This document shows positions 7,808-61,930 of a stretch of 64,000 nt of DNA, one piece after another. This DNA comes from Escherichia phage EC_OE_11. The position numbers were made by a program, and so were the translations under genes. Numbering within the stretch: position 1 is the first letter of the stretch; each line of letters starts with the position of its first letter. The stretch lies in sequence record OQ108497.1. One strand, 5' to 3'. The notes below the pieces were generated by a model. It saw only the letters and a program-made list of their open reading frames with translations. It did not search any database and was not told where the DNA came from.

Positions 7808-8404
7808 TTACTCGAACCAATCGTCGCCAGCGCCAAACGCTTTAACTACATCGTAAATGTCAAGCCCAGCTTTACCTACACCATATGCTTTCAGTTTCCA
7901 TTCGCTATCTTCTCGCACCAGGGAGGCAACGTGGCAAATGGTGTTACCTGCAAGTTCTGGAGCCAAGAAGTCAAAGTCCAGCAGTTCAACATTACGTTCA
8001 TCATCGAAGATTTTAAGGAAACCTTCGGTAGCGTGACCAAGGCGTTTCTTACCCGTTTCGTCATCAATAGTAATTACGAATGCAATTTCCTGTGCTTCAG
8101 CAGAGATATTATCCAGTGTAACATCAATCTGCTCCATTTGTCCTACACCGTCACGAACATCTTCACCTGCAAAAGTAGAACGTTCAGGATCAAATTTCTG
8201 CGCGTAGCATACCAGGTGGCGAGGAGACAACAGTTCCGGCAGACCAGATGCGTTGTGTCGGCAAATCAGAGCACTAACATCCAGATCCAGTTTTTCGTTA
8301 GATTTCCAAGAGAATTCCAGACGAATGCGTTTCAGTGCTGGTGCGATCTTTTTCAGAGAAACTTTTTCGCTAGAACCTTTTTTCAGGGAAATTTTCTGAG
8401 TCAT
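7808..8404 (-). CDS. terD: TerD-domain protein (tellurite-resistance/stress family)
   Basis: Alignable to TerD consensus: ISLKKG..VSL, LDLDVSAL, EIAFVITIDD, SEWKLKAYGVG; AAGGAG SD. Confidence 0.8.
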   Translation of the reverse strand: MTQKISLKKGSSEKVSLKKIAPALKRIRLEFSWKSNEKLDLDVSALICRHNASGLPELLSPRHLVCYAQKFDPERSTFAGEDVRDGVGQMEQIDVTLDNISAEAQEIAFVITIDDETGKKRLGHATEGFLKIFDDERNVELLDFDFLAPELAGNTICHVASLVREDSEWKLKAYGVGKAGLDIYDVVKAFGAGDDWFE

Positions 8405-8476: not shown

Positions 8477-9271
8477 TTACGCTTTTGCTCCAAATTTTTT
8501 AACCCACTCGCCAAACTCTTCGGATAACAGTTTATCGTAAAGTTCTTCATCAGACAAGGACAAATCTGCAATACCGATAAAATCAACATTATCGTACTCT
8601 TTTGCCAAGTCTTTCAGGAATTTAAAGTTTGCATTACCTACACCAACCATAAACCAGTAAACAGGTGTATTGCGGTGTTTGTTCAGCAAGCTACGTACTG
8701 CTGAAGTATCCATGTTCTCCCCGTCAGTTTGGAAGAAAATCATTGCAGGAGTACGATCAACTTGTGCATTAGTATCTACAACCTGTTCTACAACAGTACG
8801 TGTAACTTGTACAAGTTCTTTTTTACCAGTTAGTTTAGCAAGGAAACCTTTAGCCGGAACTTCTTCATACTCAACGACTTCGCGTGTAATATTTTTCATA
8901 GGTACACTGCCGAAGTATGTATCATAAATCTCTTGCATTACTGGAGCATAAGCTGTACCACCGTTGATGCAAACATTAGACATGCAAGAGCCGACATAAT
9001 CATCATACACATCAGCCGTTGCAGGAGGCAGTTCAAAAGAAGAACTATTGAAAGCCCACATGTCAATCTGTGCATTATCATCAAACTTCATACCAAACGG
9101 CAGCAGTTTACCTACAAAATCACTAACAGTGCCATCACGATACAGTTCACACATACTGCCCGAAATATCTAAGGCGCTACCGACACGAAGAACAACATCG
9201 TTAATCTTTTTCTTACGCAGAGATACAGTAAGAGTTTCTTGACGTTTTTTAAGACTGATTTTATTGGACAT
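8477..9271 (-). CDS. von Willebrand factor A domain protein (TerY-like)
   Basis: MIDAS-type DISGSM, GGTAY and FFQTDGE motifs; adjacent to TerD gene. Confidence 0.65.
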   Translation of the reverse strand: MSNKISLKKRQETLTVSLRKKKINDVVLRVGSALDISGSMCELYRDGTVSDFVGKLLPFGMKFDDNAQIDMWAFNSSSFELPPATADVYDDYVGSCMSNVCINGGTAYAPVMQEIYDTYFGSVPMKNITREVVEYEEVPAKGFLAKLTGKKELVQVTRTVVEQVVDTNAQVDRTPAMIFFQTDGENMDTSAVRSLLNKHRNTPVYWFMVGVGNANFKFLKDLAKEYDNVDFIGIADLSLSDEELYDKLLSEEFGEWVKKFGAKA

Positions 9272-10298: not shown

Positions 10299-10531
10299 TA
10301 CACATTCTCCTCTTTTACCAATTCCATCGTTGAACTATCAAAACCATCTTTAGAAGAATAGGTATAGACAGGACGTAGTTCTCGCAGGACAGTGAATACA
10401 TTAGGATCATCTAACCAAGCATCCTGGAGGAGAACATAACGATCTTCATTGTCGTACTGGACAGCAATCATAGAACCAGACAGTTTGTAAATTTTAATAT
10501 TCATAATATATTTCTCCTTAAAGTAGACCAC
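10298..10531 (-). CDS. hypothetical protein
   Basis: 77-aa ORF, coupled. Confidence 0.45.
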   Translation of the reverse strand: MVYFKEKYIMNIKIYKLSGSMIAVQYDNEDRYVLLQDAWLDDPNVFTVLRELRPVYTYSSKDGFDSSTMELVKEENV

Positions 10532-11621
10532 GTTTAACAGTTTGAATCATACCATCTTCAAGAGATTGTACTTCTTGGATGTAATCAATACGAGCAGCAC
10601 GGGCTTCAGTGTTGATTCGGTTAGTTTCTTCCAACATTTTAACTAAGTTTTCTTGATCGCGACGTAGTGTTTCAATATCCAATACTTGACGATTAGCAAG
10701 TTGTGTAGCTTCAATTTGGTTTTGTGCAGCCAGATCACTACCCATTGCAATAGCAGCATTAAATTCATTCAGTACATTGTTCTGTGTATCGGCTGCTTTC
10801 TTCTGGCGTAGACTTTCAATATACATAGAAAAGTTTGCAGAGTAAGCAGGGATAACATTATTCACAATGTTACGTGCTGATCGCATCAAACTTGCAGATA
10901 CTTTCTGCATACTTTGTACACGTGGCCCCATCTGAACACACAGTAAACGCAAGGCTTTCAGGTCTGCAATACGAATTTCAAGCAGATCCATAGTATCACG
11001 AGTACGTTGACGCTCTTCTACTTCATTTTCAGGTAGAGTATTAAGGCGAACTTCTTCTTTTTCATAAGTAGCTGTTAGAAGCTCTATATCCCTGTTTAAG
11101 CTAAGAGCATATTTTGCAATAGCCTCTTCTAAACGTTGCAGATATCGTAAAGAATCTTCTTCTTTTTTCAAGTCTGTTTGGAGTGTCTTTACCAAACCTT
11201 CAATACGATTATTGATGGTGTCAAACTCTCCAAACAAATCTTCTTTCATACCTAACACTTTCTTAACTAGCTTACCTAAACCTTTAGATTGTTTAATAGA
11301 ATTAGGATCAAGTTGCTTTGCTTGCTTAATAAGTGCAGTTAAACGTTCACTCATTTCATCTCCCTGGGATGAACGCTGGTGTTTAAGCACTTCAGCATTA
11401 AGGTTACGAAGAGTAAGTCCTGCATCAGCACCAACTTGTTCAATCTCTTCACGAGACATTGGAGGCAGCATTTGTACAGGTCGTGCAACAGCAGGTGCAT
11501 ATACAGGGCTTGCATCCATAGCACTTGGAGCAAACAAAGACTTACTCTTTTCTGTTGTTGCCGTGAATACACTCATTTCAGACGGTTTGCTTTTTACGGC
11601 ACTGATAAAAGGACTGGACAT
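10518..11621 (-). CDS. TelA-like toxic-anion-resistance family protein (tentative)
   Basis: 367 aa, disordered N-terminus then long coiled-coil; size, architecture and Ter context match TelA/KlaB; not motif-proven. Confidence 0.45.
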   Translation of the reverse strand: MSSPFISAVKSKPSEMSVFTATTEKSKSLFAPSAMDASPVYAPAVARPVQMLPPMSREEIEQVGADAGLTLRNLNAEVLKHQRSSQGDEMSERLTALIKQAKQLDPNSIKQSKGLGKLVKKVLGMKEDLFGEFDTINNRIEGLVKTLQTDLKKEEDSLRYLQRLEEAIAKYALSLNRDIELLTATYEKEEVRLNTLPENEVEERQRTRDTMDLLEIRIADLKALRLLCVQMGPRVQSMQKVSASLMRSARNIVNNVIPAYSANFSMYIESLRQKKAADTQNNVLNEFNAAIAMGSDLAAQNQIEATQLANRQVLDIETLRRDQENLVKMLEETNRINTEARAARIDYIQEVQSLEDGMIQTVKRGLL

Positions 11622-11689: not shown

Positions 11690-12541
11690 TTAAACAAACA
11701 TATCTAAATAATTTGTAGTAATAAATGCTCCATCTGCTTCCAGATTAACATAACCAGTAGCATTAGTGGTTAAGAAATCCAGATCGAAGGACTCTTTAAC
11801 ACCCCGTACCTCAACACGAGAGATATCGAATACAGGTAGTGTAACAGCCTCTTCGTGCAATACCGTACCTTTGTAGGTTGCCTTAATGATAAACTTGATA
11901 TTACCCGTTCCAGCATCATACAAAACACTTTCAAACCCTTTGAGAGTATATTTATCACCAGAAGTGAAGTGCAAAGTTGCTTTGTTTACAGTACGTTTTT
12001 TACGAGGAGTTCCTTTCACACGTTTATGATCACTACGTTTTTTGTATTTAGGAATGAATACAAACGATACACTCTCAAGAAAGGTATCAACATCAAGGAT
12101 TTTAATATCCTCTGTTGCAGCAAATTTTGAAGTCGTTGCATCAAAATGCTTTCCCCTGCGATCATACATAAAGATATCAAACCGATCTTCTAAATCAAAC
12201 AAATTATGTATCTTAATTTCAGAATGCTTGCACATTGCAGCAACCTTAAACTCTTCAAAACGTGGGTGTTCTACCAGTTCTTCAAGTTTTACACCAAAGA
12301 CAGTATATGGTTTCGAAGTTTTTTCTGGTGTTGGCATTACAGAAGCATAATCACCGATTGCGCTCTTAAAGCAAAATTGTTCTTGACCTGTATTTTTACC
12401 AACGAATTTACAGTATTCGTCATCGTGCATGCTTTCCTTGGTAGTACCAACAAACTCAAAACCATCTTTATTCTTCTCAAGAATTTCTTGATTAAAGATC
12501 CAACCTTCCAGGCGATACACTTTACCAACTTCTAGTTTCAT
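11690..12541 (-). CDS. hypothetical protein
   Basis: 283-aa ORF. Confidence 0.55.
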   Translation of the reverse strand: MKLEVGKVYRLEGWIFNQEILEKNKDGFEFVGTTKESMHDDEYCKFVGKNTGQEQFCFKSAIGDYASVMPTPEKTSKPYTVFGVKLEELVEHPRFEEFKVAAMCKHSEIKIHNLFDLEDRFDIFMYDRRGKHFDATTSKFAATEDIKILDVDTFLESVSFVFIPKYKKRSDHKRVKGTPRKKRTVNKATLHFTSGDKYTLKGFESVLYDAGTGNIKFIIKATYKGTVLHEEAVTLPVFDISRVEVRGVKESFDLDFLTTNATGYVNLEADGAFITTNYLDMFV

Positions 12542-12576: not shown

Positions 12577-13182
12577 TTAACGACGACGTGAGCTACTAAA
12601 ACTACGTTTCGACGAAGAATAACTTTTCGAAGACTTACTATAAGAGCTAATAGGACTTGAGTAAGACTTACGAGCAGAGTAATCACTATTCACTTTTGTT
12701 GTTGATGGGCGTGAATACGTTTGTACACTTTGCTGCTTAATTGTGTTTTGTTTAGTGGTTGTATATGTATTTACAGGTTTATCATAAAAACTACGCTTTT
12801 GTGTTGTATATGATTTACTGTTAGTTGTAGGAGCAGCATTGTTATTAATAATGGTTGTATTGCTACCACCATCTCTATAACCACCACCGCCACTATTACC
12901 ACTCAACATATGACCAAGAAGCATACCTGTAGCAAATTCACCTACACCAGAAGAACTACTACCGCCTCCTTGCACAACAACTGTTGAAGGTTGTGCAGGT
13001 GCTGCTTGAACAACTTGAGGTGCAGGTTGATTTACATATTGTTCATCTACCATCTGATTTGGTGTTTGTTGGTAACGTTGATTTTGTACATTTTCAGAAT
13101 CATCACAACCTACCAGCAATACACTACCTAATACAACTGCAACAATAAAAGATTTAATGTTTTTCATTTGTAACCCTCTCAT
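12577..13182 (-). CDS. lipoprotein, low-complexity S/T/Y/K-rich
   Basis: Signal peptide with LLVGC lipobox; C-terminal repetitive S/Y/K region. Confidence 0.55.
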   Translation of the reverse strand: MRGLQMKNIKSFIVAVVLGSVLLVGCDDSENVQNQRYQQTPNQMVDEQYVNQPAPQVVQAAPAQPSTVVVQGGGSSSSGVGEFATGMLLGHMLSGNSGGGGYRDGGSNTTIINNNAAPTTNSKSYTTQKRSFYDKPVNTYTTTKQNTIKQQSVQTYSRPSTTKVNSDYSARKSYSSPISSYSKSSKSYSSSKRSFSSSRRR

Positions 13183-13399: not shown

Positions 13400-14377
13400 T
13401 TAAGCAACAGCCTGGTCTTCTTTTTCAGGGAAGATTAAACTTGCAATGACACCCAGCCCCAGAGTACCTAACACAATATACATACTGATCGTCGGATCAA
13501 TGTGTGCTGGCAGGAAACTCACTTTTGCGTGCAGAGTTTCTGCAAACGGGTGATACATCAGTTTTACACCCACAAATACCAGGACTACGATAACTGCTTT
13601 CTCCAGATGAACCAAATATTTCAGTGCAACACTAAGGACAAAGAACAGAGCACGTAGACCTAAAATTGCACACAGCATTGAAGAAAATACAAGCAGAGGT
13701 TCTTGTGTCACTGCAATTACTGCTGGAACAGAGTCTACTGCAAAGATTACGTCAACCATTTCCATTACAAACACACAAACCAGAGCCGGAGTTGCTACAC
13801 GAACACCATTTTTGATTGTGAAGAACTTCTCACCATCCATCTGATCAGATACAGGGAACAGCTTACGAACAATGCGAGTAGCCCAGTGTTTAGAGTAATC
13901 AACTTCTGCGTCATTATCTCCAGCGAATACCATTTTAGCTGCACAGAAAAGGATGACCGCACCGAAGAAGATATTAACATACCAGCCCAAACTCAACAAA
14001 TAAGTGCCTACTGCTACAAACACACCTCGGAAGACAATCGCACCTGCAATACCCCAAAGTAGAATCTTGTGTTGCAAGTGTGTGCTTTTAATACCAAAAC
14101 TTGCGAATACTGCCACAAATACTACTAAGTTATCTACAGAAAGAGATTTCTCCAACACATATCCACTCAAGAACAAGCTCGCAAAATCAGCACCGTGCTG
14201 GAAGTATACAAAACCATAGTAGGCTAATGATACCCCAATCCAGAAAATTGACCAACCAATTGCAGATTTAAATGAAATTTCTTTGTTTTCTCTGTGTCCA
14301 AAGAAATCAATACAAATCGACAACACTAAAATACCCACTAAAACAACCACATCAATAATTGGGAAACCCAGTTGCAT
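13400..14377 (-). CDS. terC: TerC-family integral membrane protein
   Basis: Multi-TM protein with duplicated TerC signature (LEKSLSVDNLVVF...LWGIAGAIVFRG and AVDSVPAVIAV...ILGLRALFF). Confidence 0.8.
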   Translation of the reverse strand: MQLGFPIIDVVVLVGILVLSICIDFFGHRENKEISFKSAIGWSIFWIGVSLAYYGFVYFQHGADFASLFLSGYVLEKSLSVDNLVVFVAVFASFGIKSTHLQHKILLWGIAGAIVFRGVFVAVGTYLLSLGWYVNIFFGAVILFCAAKMVFAGDNDAEVDYSKHWATRIVRKLFPVSDQMDGEKFFTIKNGVRVATPALVCVFVMEMVDVIFAVDSVPAVIAVTQEPLLVFSSMLCAILGLRALFFVLSVALKYLVHLEKAVIVVLVFVGVKLMYHPFAETLHAKVSFLPAHIDPTISMYIVLGTLGLGVIASLIFPEKEDQAVA

Positions 14378-14395: not shown

Positions 14396-14414
14396 GCGGA
14401 GGACAATCCTCCGC
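14396..14414 (-). terminator. GC stem-loop just upstream of terC SD (terminator/attenuator)
   Basis: GCGGAGG-acaat-CCTCCGC hairpin between 14455..14703 and terC. Confidence 0.4.
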
Positions 14415-14454
14415 TCTATGTCTTATACTATAAACTGTTTTTAAAGAAAGTCAA

Positions 14455-14934: not shown

Positions 14935-15651
14935 TTATTTCAGTTTGTAAACAATTACATTTAAACCTTTGTTTACTAGAGTTTCTTCGATCATAAGTTT
15001 TACAATATTCCAAGAACCTCCAGCCAAACCACAACCAAGCATTGGTAAACCTACAATTTTACCGCCTGAAGATACAACATCGTCTCCCATACTATCTAGC
15101 GCATTGTAGATAGCTTCATAATTCAGATCACGCTTACCTTCCTCACGACTACTATAACCATATTGTCCATATAAATTATAAATTGTCAAATTGTTTTCTG
15201 TATATTTGGTAAACGTACCTAATTTTTTATAATCACCACGTTTAGTGGCACAATCTGCTTTAAACGCACCAGGCCACTTGCTTTTAATTTTTGGTGCAAT
15301 ACCACTACCCATAGTGCAAAAACAGTTACAGCAGTGTGCTATAGCGTCTATATCGCCTCTCTCGGCTGCTGCTAAAAGATCACCGTATACCTCAACGATA
15401 CCTGCTGGATAACTTGTTACAATTTCATCTTCCCAGTACATTTTCTCTACACCACCGATCAGTGCAAAGTTTTGTGTAATGCGATCATCAATATAGTTAA
15501 GACCTGAAACATACACAGCGTATTCATCCTGTGCTGTAATACCTTGCACACGAATTCTTAAGACACCATCTTTATCTGTTGCTACACGCCCAAAATCTTT
15601 TTCTGTAATATTGGTGATAGGATCTCCGAAAGTCATTACTTTATTAGACAT
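14935..15651 (-). CDS. macro-domain-like protein (putative ADP-ribose binding/processing), tentative
   Basis: DAIAHCCNCFCTMGSGIA resembles macro DAIVNAAN..LGGGGV motif, later LPMLGCGLAGG; start moved to ATG at 15651 (SD AAAGGGGA) to clear PRTase overlap. Confidence 0.4.
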   Translation of the reverse strand: MSNKVMTFGDPITNITEKDFGRVATDKDGVLRIRVQGITAQDEYAVYVSGLNYIDDRITQNFALIGGVEKMYWEDEIVTSYPAGIVEVYGDLLAAAERGDIDAIAHCCNCFCTMGSGIAPKIKSKWPGAFKADCATKRGDYKKLGTFTKYTENNLTIYNLYGQYGYSSREEGKRDLNYEAIYNALDSMGDDVVSSGGKIVGLPMLGCGLAGGSWNIVKLMIEETLVNKGLNVIVYKLK

Positions 15652-16501
15652 AATAATCCCCTTTAACATTAGATTTGTTGATAATGTTGCTTTCAAAAAA
15701 TTGACGTAGGAAATCAAAGTTCTCTTTGTATTTTTCAATGTTATTGTAGCCTTCTGCAAGGCAACCAAAGAACAGTTGTTCTACATAATACAAAGGAAGC
15801 TGTGAAAGTGCAATTTTAAAATCAACTTCGCTTTGACTCATTAGATACTTAATAGGACGAACCAAACATTTAGCATCAGTTTCTTGCTTAATCATTTTAA
15901 TAAAAGCTGCCAGGTTATTGATATAGTTGAAGTTAAGTGCAGCTTCGGTGTTGGCTTCTGTACCTTCATACTTTGCAAAGTACAGGAAAAACGTATCGTT
16001 TTCAACACCTTCTTTGTCTAAAATTTCAATAAGTTTTTCTTCGTGTGTTCCTGTAATATTAACATCATCAATGAAAATCAGAGTTTTATTACCCCAGAAA
16101 TCACGATTGATAGAGAAAGTGTCACCATCGATCAAAGCCTTACGATCTTCTTTGCTAAGAAATCCATAATCATTGATATAGCTCACTTTACGATGAACGA
16201 TATCCCACTCCACTGGTTTACCACCTTTGATAGAGATTAGGTAGTTGAGGTGATCTACAAAATGTTCAGATAACACTGTAGCTGCATTTTTCACATAGTT
16301 ATATGGAGATGGAATAACAACAAAACTTTCATTTACCAGTCGTTCTTCATACTTAGAAAAGAAACTTTCAGCCAGAATGCGCCCCATTCTTTTTGCTGCC
16401 TGGTTACTACCAAACTTTAGTTTGGAATAATCTGCAATGTTAAATTTTGCTTCCTTCAGGTTAGTAAAAGTATTAGCAAAATGTTGAATTTGATTACGCA
16501 T
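15644..16501 (-). CDS. phosphoribosyltransferase-like protein (Ter-associated PRTase type)
   Basis: PRPP-binding-like motif LIFIDDVNITGTHE; AGAGGA SD. Confidence 0.6.
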   Translation of the reverse strand: MRNQIQHFANTFTNLKEAKFNIADYSKLKFGSNQAAKRMGRILAESFFSKYEERLVNESFVVIPSPYNYVKNAATVLSEHFVDHLNYLISIKGGKPVEWDIVHRKVSYINDYGFLSKEDRKALIDGDTFSINRDFWGNKTLIFIDDVNITGTHEEKLIEILDKEGVENDTFFLYFAKYEGTEANTEAALNFNYINNLAAFIKMIKQETDAKCLVRPIKYLMSQSEVDFKIALSQLPLYYVEQLFFGCLAEGYNNIEKYKENFDFLRQFFESNIINKSNVKGDYYV

Positions 16502-17150
16502 TAATAAGTTCCTCTTTTTTAAGTTTAGCCAACAAGTTTTCTGGATTAATAATATGACAGAACTTCATCCCTATGTCAACAGCTTTTCCATCATAGATCA
16601 AACTATCTCCAACGTGTAAGATCTCCTCTGGTGCGAGATCAAACGTTACCATTTCATCAAAAGAGAGTTTAAAAAACCTAGGATCTGGTTTACACAAGCA
16701 AAACTCATCAGAAAAATGCATAAAGTCGAATGGTAATTTTGTCAAGCCAGAATATACAGCTAAGAAACTACCAGGTACAAAATTGGTATTGCTCTTAATA
16801 CTCAAAGAATAGGTTGAACTTAGCTCTTCCAACTTCTTGCAAAGTTCAGGGTTTAATGTTGGAGGATGTTTTATAAACATTGCTAAACAGTCTCTTTTTA
16901 ACCCATCCACCTTATCAAGATCAATGTTCAAATGAGCAGAAAGTGTTTCCCAAGCATTTCTAGATGTTCCACAAATGCCTTTTTCTGCTTTTAAATCCAA
17001 GAGAGTTTTTACCTCTTTATATACGGTAGCTGCTTCTACCTCAGAACAAGAGGCATACTCGGCAATAACCTTGTTGCGTTCTTCTGCATACAAAGGATTA
17101 GCAGTAATAAGAGTATTCCATACATCAAAAGAAATATGCTTAACAGTCAT
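16494..17150 (-). CDS. HAD-superfamily hydrolase (phosphatase)
   Basis: Motif I ISFDVWNTL and C-terminal HVGDSLIYDG; start set to ATG at 17150 with GGAGG SD. Confidence 0.6.
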   Translation of the reverse strand: MTVKHISFDVWNTLITANPLYAEERNKVIAEYASCSEVEAATVYKEVKTLLDLKAEKGICGTSRNAWETLSAHLNIDLDKVDGLKRDCLAMFIKHPPTLNPELCKKLEELSSTYSLSIKSNTNFVPGSFLAVYSGLTKLPFDFMHFSDEFCLCKPDPRFFKLSFDEMVTFDLAPEEILHVGDSLIYDGKAVDIGMKFCHIINPENLLAKLKKEELINA

Positions 17151-17319
17151 TTTTAATCCTCCGTCCAAAAGAATATCATCTGCTTAATTTTATTGATCTC
17201 TTGATGTAGTAACTTTCCAGCATGTAATTGATCTTTAATATTGACAGCAAGAATTTCAAGCTCCGTCAGTTTTTCTTGGATAGCTTTATATTCATCATCT
17301 GTAAGCATTTTCTTCCCCT

Positions 17320-17557: not shown

Positions 17558-18718
17558 TTAGTAAGAACGACCACCAAACACATACTCTGTGTAGTTTTTA
17601 CGTTCTTTGTTTTTAATAACAACTTCAATGTTGTTACCTTTATCATCGGTGAACATAAAGTGATAACCGTCACCACCCATTGTACGGATGTGTTTTTCAT
17701 CATACGTTAGCAAGATACGGTCTACACCCCAGTAGTAGTCACCTTCTTCATCTTTATCTTCTACGGTAACGATCCCTTCCATTTCAGGAAGATGCTCTTC
17801 ACCTAGTTTATGGTCTACAGCTACAACATAACGATTACCACTAAACAAACCTTGTGCTGTCATACCGTCAATATCGGTATCTGCCGAAACATCTCCTGTA
17901 CGATCTACACCGTTAACTTTCAGAAGTTTAACCTCTTTTGCAGCATAGCGGTGTTCAGTAATACTGATACCCATTAGTGCAAGTGCATCAGAGAATTTGT
18001 CATTAGGGTAACGGTTAAGTTCTTCTACTAATGACTGAACAATATCAAAGTTCAAATCCACGGAGAGATTATAAAGCGTTTCAAAGTCTGGTAAGAAGGC
18101 TTTGTTCTCCAGATTTTTAGCCAGATAATCATCCATAGTAGCTTTAGGTAGTTTCTTATAGCTAAAACTGTAGAAAATACGGCTAGGACGATTACGCAAA
18201 AATTCTGATACATAACCATCATTTTTAGTCAATACAAACAGTTTGTCGTAGCCACCAACACCATCCAGCAGGGTAAGCAAACCATCTTGTGCATCTTTTT
18301 CAGCATACAGTTTATCAAATTCATCGATCATAATCATTACAGGTTGTGTGATTTTAGACATAAAATTGATAAAGCCTTCACCATTAAAAGCACTGCCGAT
18401 AGAAATAGTAGGAATACCCATTTCACGAAGAGCAGAAGACAGCATTTTAGCTTGCAAAGTTTTACCGCTACCTTTCGTACCTTCAAGGAGAACACCTGTG
18501 TTTTTACCTTTGCGGCTAAGGAACGTTTTGATAATACGTTCTGATTTATCATCAGTATCACCGTATGTTACTGAAGGGACTTCCATATCGTTTTTAGGAT
18601 ACAGGAAGAACTCACCACTTTGAGTAACACCTACACCAAAAGTTCCTGCTGGAATTTCTTCAATATCTGTACCAGATTTCTGACGCAGGAAGATTTGATT
18701 GCCGAATACTGTAAACAT
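17558..18718 (-). CDS. AAA+ ATPase (paralog 1)
   Basis: Walker A GTKGSGKT, Walker B MIMIDEFDK, sensor-1 FVLTKN; paralog of 32445..33572. Confidence 0.7.
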   Translation of the reverse strand: MFTVFGNQIFLRQKSGTDIEEIPAGTFGVGVTQSGEFFLYPKNDMEVPSVTYGDTDDKSERIIKTFLSRKGKNTGVLLEGTKGSGKTLQAKMLSSALREMGIPTISIGSAFNGEGFINFMSKITQPVMIMIDEFDKLYAEKDAQDGLLTLLDGVGGYDKLFVLTKNDGYVSEFLRNRPSRIFYSFSYKKLPKATMDDYLAKNLENKAFLPDFETLYNLSVDLNFDIVQSLVEELNRYPNDKFSDALALMGISITEHRYAAKEVKLLKVNGVDRTGDVSADTDIDGMTAQGLFSGNRYVVAVDHKLGEEHLPEMEGIVTVEDKDEEGDYYWGVDRILLTYDEKHIRTMGGDGYHFMFTDDKGNNIEVVIKNKERKNYTEYVFGGRSY

Positions 18719-33646: not shown

Positions 33647-34819
33647 ATGGTAGCACTAAAATCATGGGAACAATATAAAGAAGAATTAATACCCCTTGCT
33701 AAAAATCACAATATTCAAATCTTGGGTTATGTTGGTGAATGGAAAGGGAACAAGACTAAACTTAAGCTATCTTGCCCTAAACATGGAGAGTGGAACACCA
33801 CGAACATTAATGATTTTAAGAAGGGACGTGGTTGTCCTATCTGTTCTGGTAAGAAGCCGTTAACATGGGAAACAGAATTGCCGATCTTGGAAGAGATAGC
33901 ACAGAAGAGGGGGTATCAGGTGTTAGGGTACGTGGGAGAATGGAAAGGGAATAAAACAAAACTTGATTTGTTGTGTCATTGTGGTAATAAATGGGATACT
34001 ACAAGTATTAACAATTTTAAACGTGGTAGCGGTTGTCCACAATGTAAGAGGGAGAGACAAACAATGTCCGACGATCAACATATTGCAGATTTCTTTTCTA
34101 CAGGGGAATTTAAGGAAGGCACTATCTTCACCAATACAGGGAAACGTAACAAGCGTGATGCAGTATGGATGGTTGAGTGTCCTGTTTGCTCCCATGATGA
34201 ATATGTTCAAGCAGGTGTTTGTGATGGTAAATTTTACTCTGCAGGACATAACCTTAAACAAGGGTATATTCCGTGTCGTTGTGGGAACTATCAGTATACA
34301 GAAGACCAGATCACCTATAGGGTAAAAAAGGAAGTAGAAGGGAAAGGGTATGTCTGGGTAGATTGGATTACCAAACCCTCTTCTATAGGTAAGTTTAAAT
34401 ATCTTTGTCTTGTGCATGGTGAGCAGATAGGGAGTGCTCGTAATTTATTAAGCCTCGGTCAAGGTTGTCCACAGTGTGCTGGTCATAATCAACAGCAATT
34501 ATATATTAATATTGTTAAAGATAATGATATTATAGTTGCTCTTAAGTTTGGCATAGCTAAAGATAGTGACAGGCGATTAAACAATCAAAATAGGCGTAAT
34601 ATGTTTTTTATGGAGCGTATTTGTTTATATGATTTTAGTACAGTGAAACAGTGTAAGGCTGCTGAAAGAGCTATAAAGAAAAAACTAAAAACTGGTATTT
34701 TAACAGCAAGAGAGTTGAAAGATGGTTATACAGAAACAGTAAGTGTTTCTGATTTGGAAAATCTTCAAAAAATTATTACACAATATGGTGGCAAGTTAGT
34801 ATACAGTAAGGAGGTGTAA
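33647..34819 (+). CDS. zinc-ribbon-repeat protein with C-terminal GIY-YIG-like (T5orf172/MUG113-type) domain
   Basis: Two about 45-aa repeats (GYVGEWKGNKTKL..C..G.W.TT.IN.FK.G.GCP.C) plus more CxxC pairs; C-terminal LYINIV...KFGIAKDSDRRL...AERAIKKKL. Confidence 0.45.
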   Translation: MVALKSWEQYKEELIPLAKNHNIQILGYVGEWKGNKTKLKLSCPKHGEWNTTNINDFKKGRGCPICSGKKPLTWETELPILEEIAQKRGYQVLGYVGEWKGNKTKLDLLCHCGNKWDTTSINNFKRGSGCPQCKRERQTMSDDQHIADFFSTGEFKEGTIFTNTGKRNKRDAVWMVECPVCSHDEYVQAGVCDGKFYSAGHNLKQGYIPCRCGNYQYTEDQITYRVKKEVEGKGYVWVDWITKPSSIGKFKYLCLVHGEQIGSARNLLSLGQGCPQCAGHNQQQLYINIVKDNDIIVALKFGIAKDSDRRLNNQNRRNMFFMERICLYDFSTVKQCKAAERAIKKKLKTGILTARELKDGYTETVSVSDLENLQKIITQYGGKLVYSKEV

Positions 34820-35371
34820 ATGCGGATTACTGATAAGTATGTGTTCTTCTTCTCGGCAAAAGATGAATTTAGCAACTGGTATCTATCATCTTTTATTGAA
34901 CCTTTAGCTCCCAAGTATAATAATTCTATTACAAGTTCTGTTGAATTTACTTGTGTGGAACAATATATGATGTGGAGAAAAGCATGTTTGTTTTATGATT
35001 ACAACATTGCATCTTCTATTTTAACCGGAGATCTAAGATATACAGGAGAAAAAGAACAGGCATATTATAAGCGACTAGGTAGATTAGTTAAAGATTACGA
35101 TGAAGCTACTTGGACTTCTTTACGGGAGAAGATTGTCAAGCGTGGTTTGTATCTTAAATACACACAAAATGAAGATCTCAAAAATAAACTTATAGCTTAC
35201 GCAGATAAGGAGTTTGTAGAGGCAAGTCCTTATGATTCTATTTATGGTATCAAAATGGGGATGTGGGATCGGGACGTGGAAAATAAGGATTGTTGGAAAG
35301 GACAAAATCTTTTAGGAAAATGGCATACAGACCTTGCTGTTTATCTAAAATCACAATCTGATATTTCCTGA
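34820..35371 (+). CDS. NADAR-family protein (YbiA-like)
   Basis: FFFSAKDEFSNW, CVEQYMMWRKA, EASPYDSIYGIK, GQNLLGKW align to YbiA motifs. Confidence 0.7.
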   Translation: MRITDKYVFFFSAKDEFSNWYLSSFIEPLAPKYNNSITSSVEFTCVEQYMMWRKACLFYDYNIASSILTGDLRYTGEKEQAYYKRLGRLVKDYDEATWTSLREKIVKRGLYLKYTQNEDLKNKLIAYADKEFVEASPYDSIYGIKMGMWDRDVENKDCWKGQNLLGKWHTDLAVYLKSQSDIS

Positions 35372-59713: not shown

Positions 59714-60001
59714 ATGGAACTAGTACAAGAAGTTTATGAAAAACTAAAAGAAGAGAATCTTGATTGGCCTGAACATGCTCTTATTGTCGTCAAAGATACT
59801 AATGGTGAAATAAAATTCTCAAGTGTAAGTGAAGATGATGTTGTTTTAAGTCCTACAGGATATTATATGAGAGGTGTTACGTGTCTATTCAACACCAAAG
59901 TGTATCCTGAAGTTAAACTTAGTTACGGTGAACCTGATCATCCAGAAATCGTTACACGTAATGAATATGAAAATTATTATTTTGCTCGTGAAAGCAAATA
60001 A
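59714..60001 (+). CDS. hypothetical protein
   Basis: 95 aa, GAGGAGG SD. Confidence 0.55.
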   Translation: MELVQEVYEKLKEENLDWPEHALIVVKDTNGEIKFSSVSEDDVVLSPTGYYMRGVTCLFNTKVYPEVKLSYGEPDHPEIVTRNEYENYYFARESK

Positions 60002-60009
60002 GGAAAACT

Positions 60010-60333
60010 ATGCAAAAAATAAACACTGGTTCTCGTCCTAAACAGAAGCAAACAAAAGCAAGGGTGTCTTATATTGATAACTCTTGCTATAATTTCAAAA
60101 ATGTTAAAGAAGTCATCATTGATGAAAAAGAAGGTTTGATTCACATTTCATCTGAACGTTTGAAAGGTAGTGTTACTCTTCGTGAGAATGTATCTATACC
60201 TATGAAAGTTGTGGCTACACTCTGTGTTGATAAACCAGATGTTGCTAACTATTATGTGTTCCGTGATAATCGTATTTCATTACATAACAAGATTTTTAAA
60301 TCTTCGCACGTTAAAACAAAACACATTGTATAA
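60010..60333 (+). CDS. hypothetical protein
   Basis: 107 aa. Confidence 0.55.
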   Translation: MQKINTGSRPKQKQTKARVSYIDNSCYNFKNVKEVIIDEKEGLIHISSERLKGSVTLRENVSIPMKVVATLCVDKPDVANYYVFRDNRISLHNKIFKSSHVKTKHIV

Positions 60334-60337
60334 CGCA

Positions 60338-60361
60338 TAAACCCGCTTCGGCGGGTTTTCT
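60338..60361 (+). terminator. intrinsic terminator (duplicate of 33586-33610)
   Basis: AAACCCGC-ttcg-GCGGGTTTTCTTGTAT. Confidence 0.8.
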
Positions 60362-60418
60362 TGTATATATGCTCTTTATATGTTATAAACACTTTTAGCA
60401 TAAACAATAGGAGGTATT

Positions 60419-60640
60419 ATGTCTGTAGTTGTAGAAGGTAGTATTGGTTTCTTAGTAGATAACCCTCACCCTTTCGTGGTTAAGGTTCATATTCAAGAAA
60501 AGGTAAGCAACAATACGTGGTTGTGCTTGTTAGATAGTAAGATACACTCTTATACAGAGGTTTATCTTCACACTTGGCAAATTGGTACGATAACAGCAGA
60601 GGATGAATTGATAATTGAACTATATGAACGAGATTTATAG
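60419..60640 (+). CDS. hypothetical protein
   Basis: 73 aa, AGGAGG SD. Confidence 0.55.
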   Translation: MSVVVEGSIGFLVDNPHPFVVKVHIQEKVSNNTWLCLLDSKIHSYTEVYLHTWQIGTITAEDELIIELYERDL

Positions 60641-61117: not shown

Positions 61118-61930
61118 TTATTTAGTCAAATGATCTTCTATCATTTTTATGAAAGCAGGATTGCTAAAAGCATCTGCGGCCTTTTCTCGATAAACAAAGA
61201 CTCCTCTATCTTCGTAAAGAAGAGTTTCTTCGTAATTAATTCCTGGGTTAACAACGATCATTTTTGTACCCATATTAAGTGCAGGGAATAATTCCCAATT
61301 AAAATTGATAACTTGGTTTGAACATCCTACTACTACAACCAAATCTTGCATGGTCAAAGTATCAAACAAGTGAGCCATATCTGCATACAAAGGTGCAGCC
61401 TCACCAAAAAATACAACATTAGGCTTCACCCAGTTGTAATCATCTATGTTTATACTGTTGTAACCAATATCTACCAGTGTTTTGTAATCCCCAGGATGCA
61501 TACGGTAAACTATTTCAGGAAGATATCCGTGCACGTGAATAACCGAATCTCTGTCTACACCTGCTCGCTCTAGTAGATCATCGACGTTTGTTGTCAAGTT
61601 TACTACTTGGTTAGGATATTCCTTAAACCACTTTGCTATTTGAATATGTGCAGCATTAGGTTGTACATCTTTAAGCTCAACACGTCTTTTGTTATAAAAT
61701 TCGTGTGTTTTGGCATACAAATCCATACCGTTCTCGTCTACACCACCAACCACGGGAAGATCTGGAGATGTTCTAACACGATAACCTGCTTGGAAAGCTC
61801 CAATATCGCAGACCTCTTCTAAATCATATTCTTCCCATAAGGCACGACCACTATCGGTGTCTGTTCGGAATGTTCGAATCCCACTGTCTGCACTTAAACC
61901 TGCGCCACTGACAAAAATTACTCTTCGCAT
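61118..61930 (-). CDS. Sir2-family protein (sirtuin-like NAD-dependent deacylase or ADP-ribosyltransferase)
   Basis: VIFVSGAGLSADSGIRTFR, PNAAHIQIA, TTNVDDLLERAG...HVHG, VVFFGE, VVVGCSNQV; no obvious Zn-binding CxxC pairs. Confidence 0.75.
   Translation of the reverse strand: MRRVIFVSGAGLSADSGIRTFRTDTDSGRALWEEYDLEEVCDIGAFQAGYRVRTSPDLPVVGGVDENGMDLYAKTHEFYNKRRVELKDVQPNAAHIQIAKWFKEYPNQVVNLTTNVDDLLERAGVDRDSVIHVHGYLPEIVYRMHPGDYKTLVDIGYNSINIDDYNWVKPNVVFFGEAAPLYADMAHLFDTLTMQDLVVVVGCSNQVINFNWELFPALNMGTKMIVVNPGINYEETLLYEDRGVFVYREKAADAFSNPAFIKMIEDHLTK

Follow-up and report, generated by a model that had tools for sequence, protein, structure and literature searches.

Within a 64,000-nucleotide stretch of Escherichia phage EC_OE_11 (sequence record OQ108497.1; hereafter the window), the gene at 14935-15651 on the minus strand encodes a macrodomain protein that, judging from its sequence, is probably an active hydrolase belonging to the Adpp/AdfM (Tk.4) family of phages, with a catalytic Gln of the SCO6735 type. 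We rank first, at a probability of roughly 45%, a main role like that of Adpp of Vibrio phage Gary, which converts ADP-ribose-1''-phosphate (ADPR-1''-phosphate) to ADP-ribose (ADPR), ahead of a role like that of AdfM on ADP-ribosylated DNA. A first-pass annotation of the window had described the gene as macro-domain-like, lying inside a Ter module and forming, with a NADAR gene and a Sir2-like gene, a set of three domains related to ADP-ribose or nicotinamide adenine dinucleotide (NAD+). That account was incomplete in that it overlooked a non-macro domain in residues 1-82 and a NARP1 operon located outside the window. The features of the gene, all on the minus strand, are as follows.

14935-15651: macro gene, stop codon included, encoding a 238-residue two-domain protein (N-terminal small beta-barrel plus macrodomain); from the open reading frame and its translation
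15658-15664: Shine-Dalgarno-like AAAGGGG, 6 nucleotides 5' of the ATG at 15651; read directly from the sequence
15406-15651: N-terminal domain, residues 1-82, SH3-like small beta-barrel; motifs D-x-G-R-[IV]-A and [IV]-G-G-x3-M-[YF]-W-E
14938-15405: macrodomain, residues 83-238, ALC1-like (TARG1/DarG/SCO6735) class; Pfam, PDB sequence search, AlphaFold2 and Foldseek
15295-15339: loop 1, AHCCNCFCTMGSGIA, residues 105-119; H106 equivalent to SCO6735 His24, N109 to Asn27, and S116 at the Lys34 position
15163-15165: Gln163, counterpart of SCO6735 Gln85 (essential in that enzyme), at the site of the catalytic TARG1 Lys84 and DarG Lys80
15127-15162: loop after the catalytic Gln, YGYSSREEGKRD, residues 164-175; also in Adpp and SCO6735, deleted in T4 Tk.4
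15010-15039: phosphate-binding G-rich loop LGCGLAGGSW, residues 205-214; G206 and G208 equivalent to SCO6735 Gly126 and Gly128, A210 at TARG1 Asp125

A predicted macro fold of the ALC1-like class

The reading of the gene as macro-domain-like was borne out by Pfam, PDB sequence matches, an AlphaFold2 model and Foldseek. Pfam Macro (PF01661) scored 31.5 bits over residues 106-217 (gathering threshold, 22), PHROG 335, labeled "phosphatase", matched the protein at E=5e-64, and the top PDB sequence matches were SCO6735 (5E3B; 2e-15), BT1257 (2FG1; 1e-14) and TARG1/OARD1 (3e-10). The AlphaFold2 model, built on 40 homologues (alignment A1), had predicted local distance difference test (pLDDT) values >90 across residues 83-238, and on this predicted structure the segment is confirmed as a three-layer alpha/beta/alpha macro fold of the ALC1-like class. 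Upon comparing the model with known structures by Foldseek, a check that the first-pass annotation had proposed, we obtained TARG1 at rank 1 (TM-score 0.90, E=1e-12), with BT1257, DarG and SCO6735 next in order; both the macro fold and a conserved pocket for ADP-ribose are present. Ranks 1-13 and 15 were all TARG1, BT1257, DarG or SCO6735, with Poa1p and alphavirus macrodomains placed lower, and the top 44 of the 230 PDB matches at E<=1e-3 were macrodomains without exception. The segment previously singled out as resembling an ADP-ribose-binding motif, DAIAHCCNCFCTMGSGIA, corresponds to residues 102-119, and the later G-rich loop to residues 205-214. The NCBIfam match was limited to the antitoxin DarG (NF048014), at 49.8 bits against a cutoff of 250 and over model positions 4-147 of 338; a label of orphan DarG was rejected on account of this low score, the missing catalytic Lys and the missing DarT-binding domain.

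Residues were mapped through a HMMER alignment to 5e3b and laid on the mutational study of SCO6735, where Gln85, Asn27, Gly128 and His24 were needed for catalysis (PMC9411070). The window protein has the equivalents of this SCO6735-type Gln subclass (Q163, N109, G208 and H106) but not its DNA-positioning lysines, Lys34 and Lys89 being replaced by Ser116 and Ser167; in addition, G165 aligns with Gly87. Across the 40 homologues, N109, G117, Q163, G206 and G208 are invariant. Because Gln163 holds the position of TARG1 Lys84 and DarG Lys80, the predicted enzyme is of the Gln type and not of the Lys type, and Ala210 at the TARG1 Asp125 site likewise departs from the TARG1/DarG-type Lys mechanism. 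The protein is thus akin to TARG1/OARD1 and DarG (DarG2) in its ALC1-like class and its best structural matches, with DarG within the top 15, while it differs from TARG1 (K84), DarG (K80) and the PhiKZ enzyme (K78) in its catalytic position and lacks the C-terminal DarT-binding domain of DarG. With SCO6735 and BT1257, it shares Gln85, Asn27, His24, Gly126 and Gly128 and a loop of comparable length after the catalytic Gln; it is set apart from these cellular proteins, which have no N-terminal domain and about 30% identity to it, by the serines in place of Lys34 and Lys89. Bound ADP-ribose would have loop 1 (H106, N109, G117) on one side and on the other the G-rich loop (G206, G208), and cleavage at C1'' of the distal ribose would yield free ADP-ribose.

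Many macrodomains are readers, which counts in favor of a non-catalytic domain whose task would be to soak up signals derived from ADP-ribose or to read ADP-ribosylated targets. The described phage sponges that act on Thoeris signals derived from ADPR point the same way. We give such a binder next to no weight, as the residues of SCO6735 catalysis (Gln85, Asn27, Gly128, His24) are all kept, most of them invariant in the 40 homologues, and the close homologues are enzymes.

Phage relatives and the NARP1 context

Relatives of the macrodomain were found by tblastn in 2,908 phage records, T4 tk.4 among them. Adpp of Vibrio phage Gary (KNV71_gp137) shares 41% identity with the window macrodomain over 154 residues (E=7e-37). 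Without it, NARP1-AP does not overcome aRES, a defence built on a RES-type NAD+ phosphorylase whose product is ADPR-1''-phosphate, and its conversion of this product to ADPR lets Adps and Namat rebuild NAD+ (preprint 10.64898/2026.01.28.702374, Osterman et al.). The T4 protein Tk.4/AdfM is 27-30% identical to the window macrodomain (30% by BLASTP, at E=9e-18; E=3e-35 with a family profile). In a HIDEN-SEQ screen and in a clean knockout, tk.4 proved to be protective for T4 against DarTG2, for which it was named AdfM, with its enzymatic activity inferred and not measured (preprint 10.1101/2025.11.20.689424). Since Tk.4 and Adpp are 35% identical, both tested activities fall within one family.

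In a rough neighbor-joining tree, made together with an identity table of macro proteins, the window clade groups with macrodomains of Vequintavirinae, jumbo phages and Pakpunavirus, and the Vibrio Adpp clade joins next, whereas T4 Tk.4 falls outside the window and Adpp clades and SCO6735 and BT1257 lie farther out. This placement with NARP1-linked macrodomains and Adpp, with Tk.4 outside, speaks for an Adpp-like role. Beyond Stephanstirmvirinae and Vequintavirinae, the nearest relatives (42-48% identity) lie in or beside NARP1 or NAMPT genes in four lineages, with the following gene orders (x, other gene).

Vibrio phages phi 3 and Gary: Adps-macro-Namat
Pakpunavirus Ab02: Adps-x-Namat-x-macro (macro 47.7% identity)
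Jumbo contigs L018-20: Adps-DHFR-x-macro-GIY-YIG-x-Namat (macro 46.7% identity)
Jumbo contig L016: NUDIX-NAMPT, then two macro genes and SIR2

The last of these contigs carries its tandem macro genes, which belong to two subfamilies, at L016:6001-6911 near NUDIX-NAMPT, HAD_SAK_2 and SIR2 genes, resembling a dense NAD/ADP-ribose island.

The window phage has near-identical relatives in which a NARP1 operon can be located. Over 5 kb around the macro gene, the window matches Escherichia phage PaulScherrer (BASEL Bas60, MZ501100) at 98.8% identity; both are phi92-like Justusliebigvirus phages of the Stephanstirmvirinae, and the protein of bas60_0070 (59888-60622) is 100% identical to the window macro protein. 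NARP1 has been reported in four BASEL phages. In Bas60, the operon comprises bas60_0254-bas60_0255 at 143141-145839 (L028:15442-18140), outside the window and ~83 kb from the macro gene; it encodes an Adps-like phosphoribosyl pyrophosphate synthetase homologue (43% identity to Gary Adps, 1e-47) and a Namat-like nicotinamide phosphoribosyltransferase homologue (39% identity to Gary Namat, 2e-112). It adjoins a tRNA cluster, its two genes are neither separated nor flanked by a macro gene, and neither Adps nor Namat is present in the 64-kb window. The window protein accordingly resembles Gary Adpp in its macrodomain of ~155 residues, its H-x-x-N, YGQ and GCGLAGG motifs, its loop after the catalytic Gln and in that Adps and Namat are encoded in the same genome (Bas60). 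It differs in that the Gary gene sits between Adps and Namat in one operon, whereas the window macro gene lies ~83 kb from NARP1, follows PRTase_3 and HAD genes in a Ter region and carries an extra 82-residue N-terminal domain.

We infer the substrate and the role in vivo to be as follows. The host aRES would convert NAD+ to nicotinamide and ADPR-1''-phosphate, the macrodomain would take off the 1''-phosphate, and the phage NARP1 enzymes (Adps and Namat, encoded ~83 kb away) would rebuild NAD+ from the resulting ADPR. Such an arrangement would amount to NARP1-AP whose phosphatase is supplied in trans. ADP-ribose on DarT2-modified thymidines is probably removed by the same active site as well, so that a dual role is plausible and the two roles are non-exclusive.

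Several points weigh against an Adpp-like main role. The macro gene is neither in nor beside the NARP1 operon, while NARP1-AP as described is defined by adjacency (within two genes of Adps/Namat), and NARP1 in the window phage itself is inferred from the near-identical genomes. Tk.4, of the same family, acts against DarTG2, so that family membership leaves the substrate unfixed; to our knowledge, T4 lacks NARP1. The top structural matches, TARG1, DarG and SCO6735, are all thymidine-ADP-ribose DNA hydrolases. Furthermore, phosphatase and DNA-glycohydrolase specificity cannot be told apart by any residue pattern known to us.

A NADAR gene and the AdfM-like alternative

Two further NAD/ADP-ribose genes had been pointed out in the window, at 34.8 and 61 kb, and Pfam showed both to be real, which confirmed the presence of three such domains.

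34820-35371, plus strand: NADAR gene; Pfam E=2e-36
61118-61930, minus strand: Sir2-family gene; Pfam SIR2 E=2e-22, NCBIfam deacylase matches sub-threshold

Homologues of the NADAR protein with 95-99.5% identity occur in 55 phage records (tblastn), a set consistent with the genus. The NADAR protein of Bas60-62, AdfN^Bas60, is a DNA ADP-ribosylglycohydrolase that neutralises DarT1 and rescues DarTG1-sensitive phages and is not effective against DarTG2 (PMC11825919). In the literature searched, we found no published data on Bas60-62 against DarTG2, and the PhageMaP paper makes no mention of macrodomains or Ter genes. The suggestion that the phage reverses ADP-ribosylation, possibly as anti-defence, gains backing by analogy from experiments on homologues (AdfN^Bas60 against DarT1, Tk.4 against DarTG2 and Adpp against aRES). 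Ending one base before the NADAR start, the gene at 33647-34819 encodes a 390-residue protein in which a T5orf172 domain is combined with three zinc-finger repeats of the CapR-homology type; its Bas60 counterpart (bas60_0110) is longer, at 1404 nucleotides, and the neighbor of the anti-DarT1 gene thus varies in length.

It is possible, and our second choice, that the macro protein acts mainly as AdfM does, as a DNA ADP-ribosylglycohydrolase clearing DarT2-modified thymidines on single-stranded phage DNA. By the same tentative account, it would complement NADAR (AdfN), which removes only guanine-linked ADP-ribose, and its SH3/Tudor-like N-terminal domain could help to bind single-stranded DNA, a replisome protein or DarT2. 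The homology to T4 Tk.4, whose knockout sensitises T4 to DarTG2, is in line with this, as is the very efficient action of SCO6735, with the same Gln, Asn, Gly and His, on DNA carrying thymidine-linked ADP-ribose, an activity common to TARG1 and DarG that therefore brackets the family. DarTG2 is left uncovered by AdfN^Bas60, T4 shows the same pairing of NADAR with a macrodomain, the sole NCBIfam match is to the antitoxin DarG, and the macro gene is located among DNA-replication and nucleotide genes. Tk.4 resembles the window protein in family, in the Gln at the catalytic position and in the NADAR AdfN of the same phage. However, it is the more distant of the tested homologues (27-30% versus 41% identity) and has neither an N-terminal domain nor the loop after the catalytic Gln, and its enzymatic activity was only inferred, while PhiKZ AdfM (gp104, catalytic K78), which strips thymidine-linked ADP-ribose off DNA, is Lys-type and DarG-like. 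The replacement of SCO6735 Lys34 and Lys89 by Ser116 and Ser167 also argues against a DNA substrate, although Tk.4, inspected in a search for specificity residues, likewise has Ser at the Lys34 position and misses the Lys89-bearing loop.

What T4 Tk.4/AdfM (L002:4923-5390) lacks is a loop of ~7 residues, which in SCO6735 carries Lys89. The specificity of these enzymes could be determined by it.

In the Sir2-family protein, the GAGxS and HG motifs are kept, and with only two isolated cysteines, the CxxC...CxxC zinc module usual in sirtuins appears to be missing. As a partner of this protein, the macrodomain would deacylate O-acetyl-ADP-ribose, or it would remove protein-linked mono-ADP-ribose placed by the phage Sir2 or by host transferases. 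TARG1/OARD1 is named O-acetyl-ADP-ribose deacetylase 1 in the PDB, homologues bear the JGI label 'O-acetyl-ADP-ribose deacetylase', SCO6735 also takes Glu/Asp-linked ADP-ribose off proteins, and besides the Sir2-family gene in the window there are the two macro genes of contig L016, 5 kb from SIR2. We nevertheless regard a sirtuin partnership as very unlikely: in the window, Sir2 lies 46 kb away, no conserved linkage was seen, the literature searched yielded no phage example, and both tested phage homologues point to counter-defence substrates.

The N-terminal domain and its fusion to the macrodomain

Translation of the fused protein is best placed at the ATG at 15651, with the stop codon at 14937-14935 on the minus strand. 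GenBank starts the gene six codons farther upstream, at an ATG without a Shine-Dalgarno sequence, whereas a start at 15651 is supported by the AAAGGGG and by the N-termini of homologues. An overlap between this ATG and the stop codon of PRTase_3, the upstream gene (ATGTCTAA), is suggestive of translational coupling between the two genes. Production of a free macrodomain from an internal start was rejected, as there is no ATG, GTG or TTG at residues 77-88.

Residues 1-82 gave no Pfam match. In a first full-length AlphaFold2 model, they were of low confidence, with two sequences covering them, and were remodelled with six sequences. In the searches made, homologues of this domain were confined to Stephanstirmvirinae-like phages: a profile run against a word-indexed set of 5.8 billion proteins returned two fragments only, and an exhaustive single-sequence search found three genuine relatives and, in addition, the repeat proteins P0123 and P0126 (GNFVLVGG..Y.WE repeats), which we regard as unrelated or unproven.

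Without exception, the domain stands directly downstream of PRTase_3, in varying company. In two Klebsiella phages (L008:3992-4555 and L009:4019-4582), it heads a 187-residue protein whose C-terminal half resembles MazG (EtGEcaDW...gEcaDv), with a Pfam MazG match of only E=0.065, and after which comes a separate macro gene. P0124 is an intact 202-residue protein of the same N-domain-MazG build; in Citrobacter phage Tr1 (L004:5983-6590), two open reading frames of 142 and 60 residues sum to its length, probably through a frameshift or sequencing error in an N-domain-MazG gene. A standalone copy of 71 residues (P0127) and a copy joined to a different C-terminal region (P0125) also exist. In Justusliebigvirus and contig L005 (53% identity overall), the domain is continuous with the macrodomain (...SYPAG/IVEVYGDLL). 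From these architectures, the N-domain-MazG protein appears to be the ancestral form, and deletion of the MazG part appears to have fused two adjacent genes. Since the fused open reading frame stays intact down to 38% identity and residues D19, G21, R22, A24, F62, G67 and W73 remain invariant, the sequences argue that the N-terminal domain is still under selection. As to its function, the SH3-like barrel may be a lineage-specific adaptor, inherited by deletion-fusion from the upstream N-domain-MazG-like gene.

The public label of bas60_0070 is already "putative macrodomain protein", other records of the genus say "phosphatase", and the NADAR and Sir2 genes of Bas60 are listed as "putative YbiA-like N-glycosidase" and "sirtuin family protein". 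The macrodomain identity is accordingly not new; new are the fused N-terminal domain and, possibly, a NARP1-AP arrangement in trans.

Position within the Ter region

The macro gene is flanked by the following genes and signals.

7808-8404, minus strand: TerD; Pfam
8477-9271, minus strand: vWA-TerF-like; Pfam
10518-11621, minus strand: TelA; Pfam
13400-14377, minus strand: TerC membrane protein, downstream of the macro gene; Pfam
14454-14427, minus strand: promoter-like TTGACT-16-TATAGT before TerC, with a hairpin at 14414-14396 and a Shine-Dalgarno sequence; tentative
15644-16501, minus strand: PRTase_3 (ComF-like phosphoribosyltransferase), upstream neighbor; Pfam E=1.5e-41
16494-17168, minus strand: HAD-family phosphatase; Pfam
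17558-18718: AAA ATPase; Pfam

These Pfam neighbors uphold the earlier placement of the gene inside the Ter module as far as position is concerned; a functional link to that module did not gain the same support and seems to us unlikely. Gene order was compared among Stephanstirmvirinae-like genomes (the window, Citrobacter phage Tr1, the pair of Klebsiella phages, contig L005 and contigs L012-L015), and the order AAA-HAD-PRTase_3-[N-domain(-MazG)]-macro-TerC is kept in all of them. In four unrelated PRTase_3 contexts (L021-L024; two jumbo phages and two Ter-bearing contigs), a search with the macro hidden Markov model found no macro gene beside PRTase_3, the sole match lying 7.5 kb off in XaC1, while a gene occupies the HAD position directly upstream of PRTase_3 in three of the four (L021-L023), annotated as HAD in L021 and L023 and present in L022 as an equivalent 222-residue gene without a Pfam match. 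The macro homologues of CR3 and pEp_SNUABM_01 (Vequintavirinae) and of T4 have unrelated neighborhoods, nowhere near Ter genes. On these comparisons, the position of the macro gene looks like lineage-specific synteny.

PRTase and HAD form the signal-biosynthesis arm of phage Ter systems (Iyer et al. 2021), and a tethered macrodomain could work with PRTase_3 and HAD (and with the MazG-like enzymes in relatives) on a proposed nucleoside-like Ter metabolite, which it would help to make or trim instead of attacking ADP-ribose conjugates of host origin. The gene order kept across the subfamily, the start that overlaps the PRTase_3 stop and the constant position of the N-terminal domain after PRTase_3 all fit this proposal, and the window region has TerD, vWA-TerF, TelA, TerC, PRTase_3 and HAD in common with phage Ter systems. 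We consider it improbable, however, given the lack of an adjacent macro gene in L021-L024, the distance from Ter genes in CR3, pEp_SNUABM_01 and T4, and the fact that synteny inside one subfamily can be plain inheritance. Moreover, Macro is not among the components given in Iyer et al. 2021, and across the subfamily, PRTase_3 is far better conserved (75-81% identity, with 45-59% kept toward jumbo phages, Xanthomonas phage XaC1 for instance) than the macrodomain (54-66%) or the N-terminal domain (about 35%), which speaks against tight co-evolution. We hold as similarly doubtful a more specific version, by which the N-terminal domain would be a docking module tying ADP-ribose/nucleotide-trimming enzymes to PRTase_3/HAD, and the macrodomain would make or destroy the Ter metabolite, this being a 1''-substituted ADP-ribose or phosphoribosyl-nucleotide derivative.

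Because consensus scans for promoters and terminators gave sites no more frequent than in shuffled sequence, operon boundaries are tentative. At 14396-14454, before TerC, the promoter-like element is close to consensus and is accompanied by a perfect 8-bp hairpin (GCGGAGGA-TTG-TCCTCCGC) without a T-run and by a strong Shine-Dalgarno sequence (AAGAGGAG); TerC may be served by a separate promoter and a structured 5' leader. Between TelA and a lipoprotein-like gene, 11690-12541 encodes a 283-residue hypothetical protein that has a motif in common with the C-terminal region of P0125, PRKK...V.K.T..H..(T/S)G(E/D).YT.K...SV (pairwise E 6e-5 over 31 residues). The lipoprotein-like protein itself (12577-13182; 201 residues) has a hydrophobic N-terminus ending in LVGC and a long low-complexity Gln/Ser/Gly-rich tail, with no significant family match.

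Implications

With the functions of the macro family established in 2025-2026, the window gene is a sound and largely expected find, and two tested activities can now be linked to the legacy 'phosphatase' label, which stands on many of the 2,908 phage records with a relative. The move of an SH3-like domain from a MazG-like enzyme to a macrodomain clearly illustrates how domains are reshuffled in an accessory region of a phage and offers a handle on the adaptor domain; if the doubtful docking-module proposal were true, Ter systems would be biochemically linked to NAD/ADP-ribose immunity. Should the Adpp-like role be correct, the capable phages would be undercounted wherever NARP1-AP is sought by operon, in searches confined to two genes on from NARP1. 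The phi92-like coliphages would then possess a layered NAD/ADP-ribose counter-defence kit, with NARP1 for NAD+, a macrodomain phosphatase in trans against RES-type NAD+ phosphorylases, NADAR against DarT1 and, possibly, the same macrodomain against DarT2.

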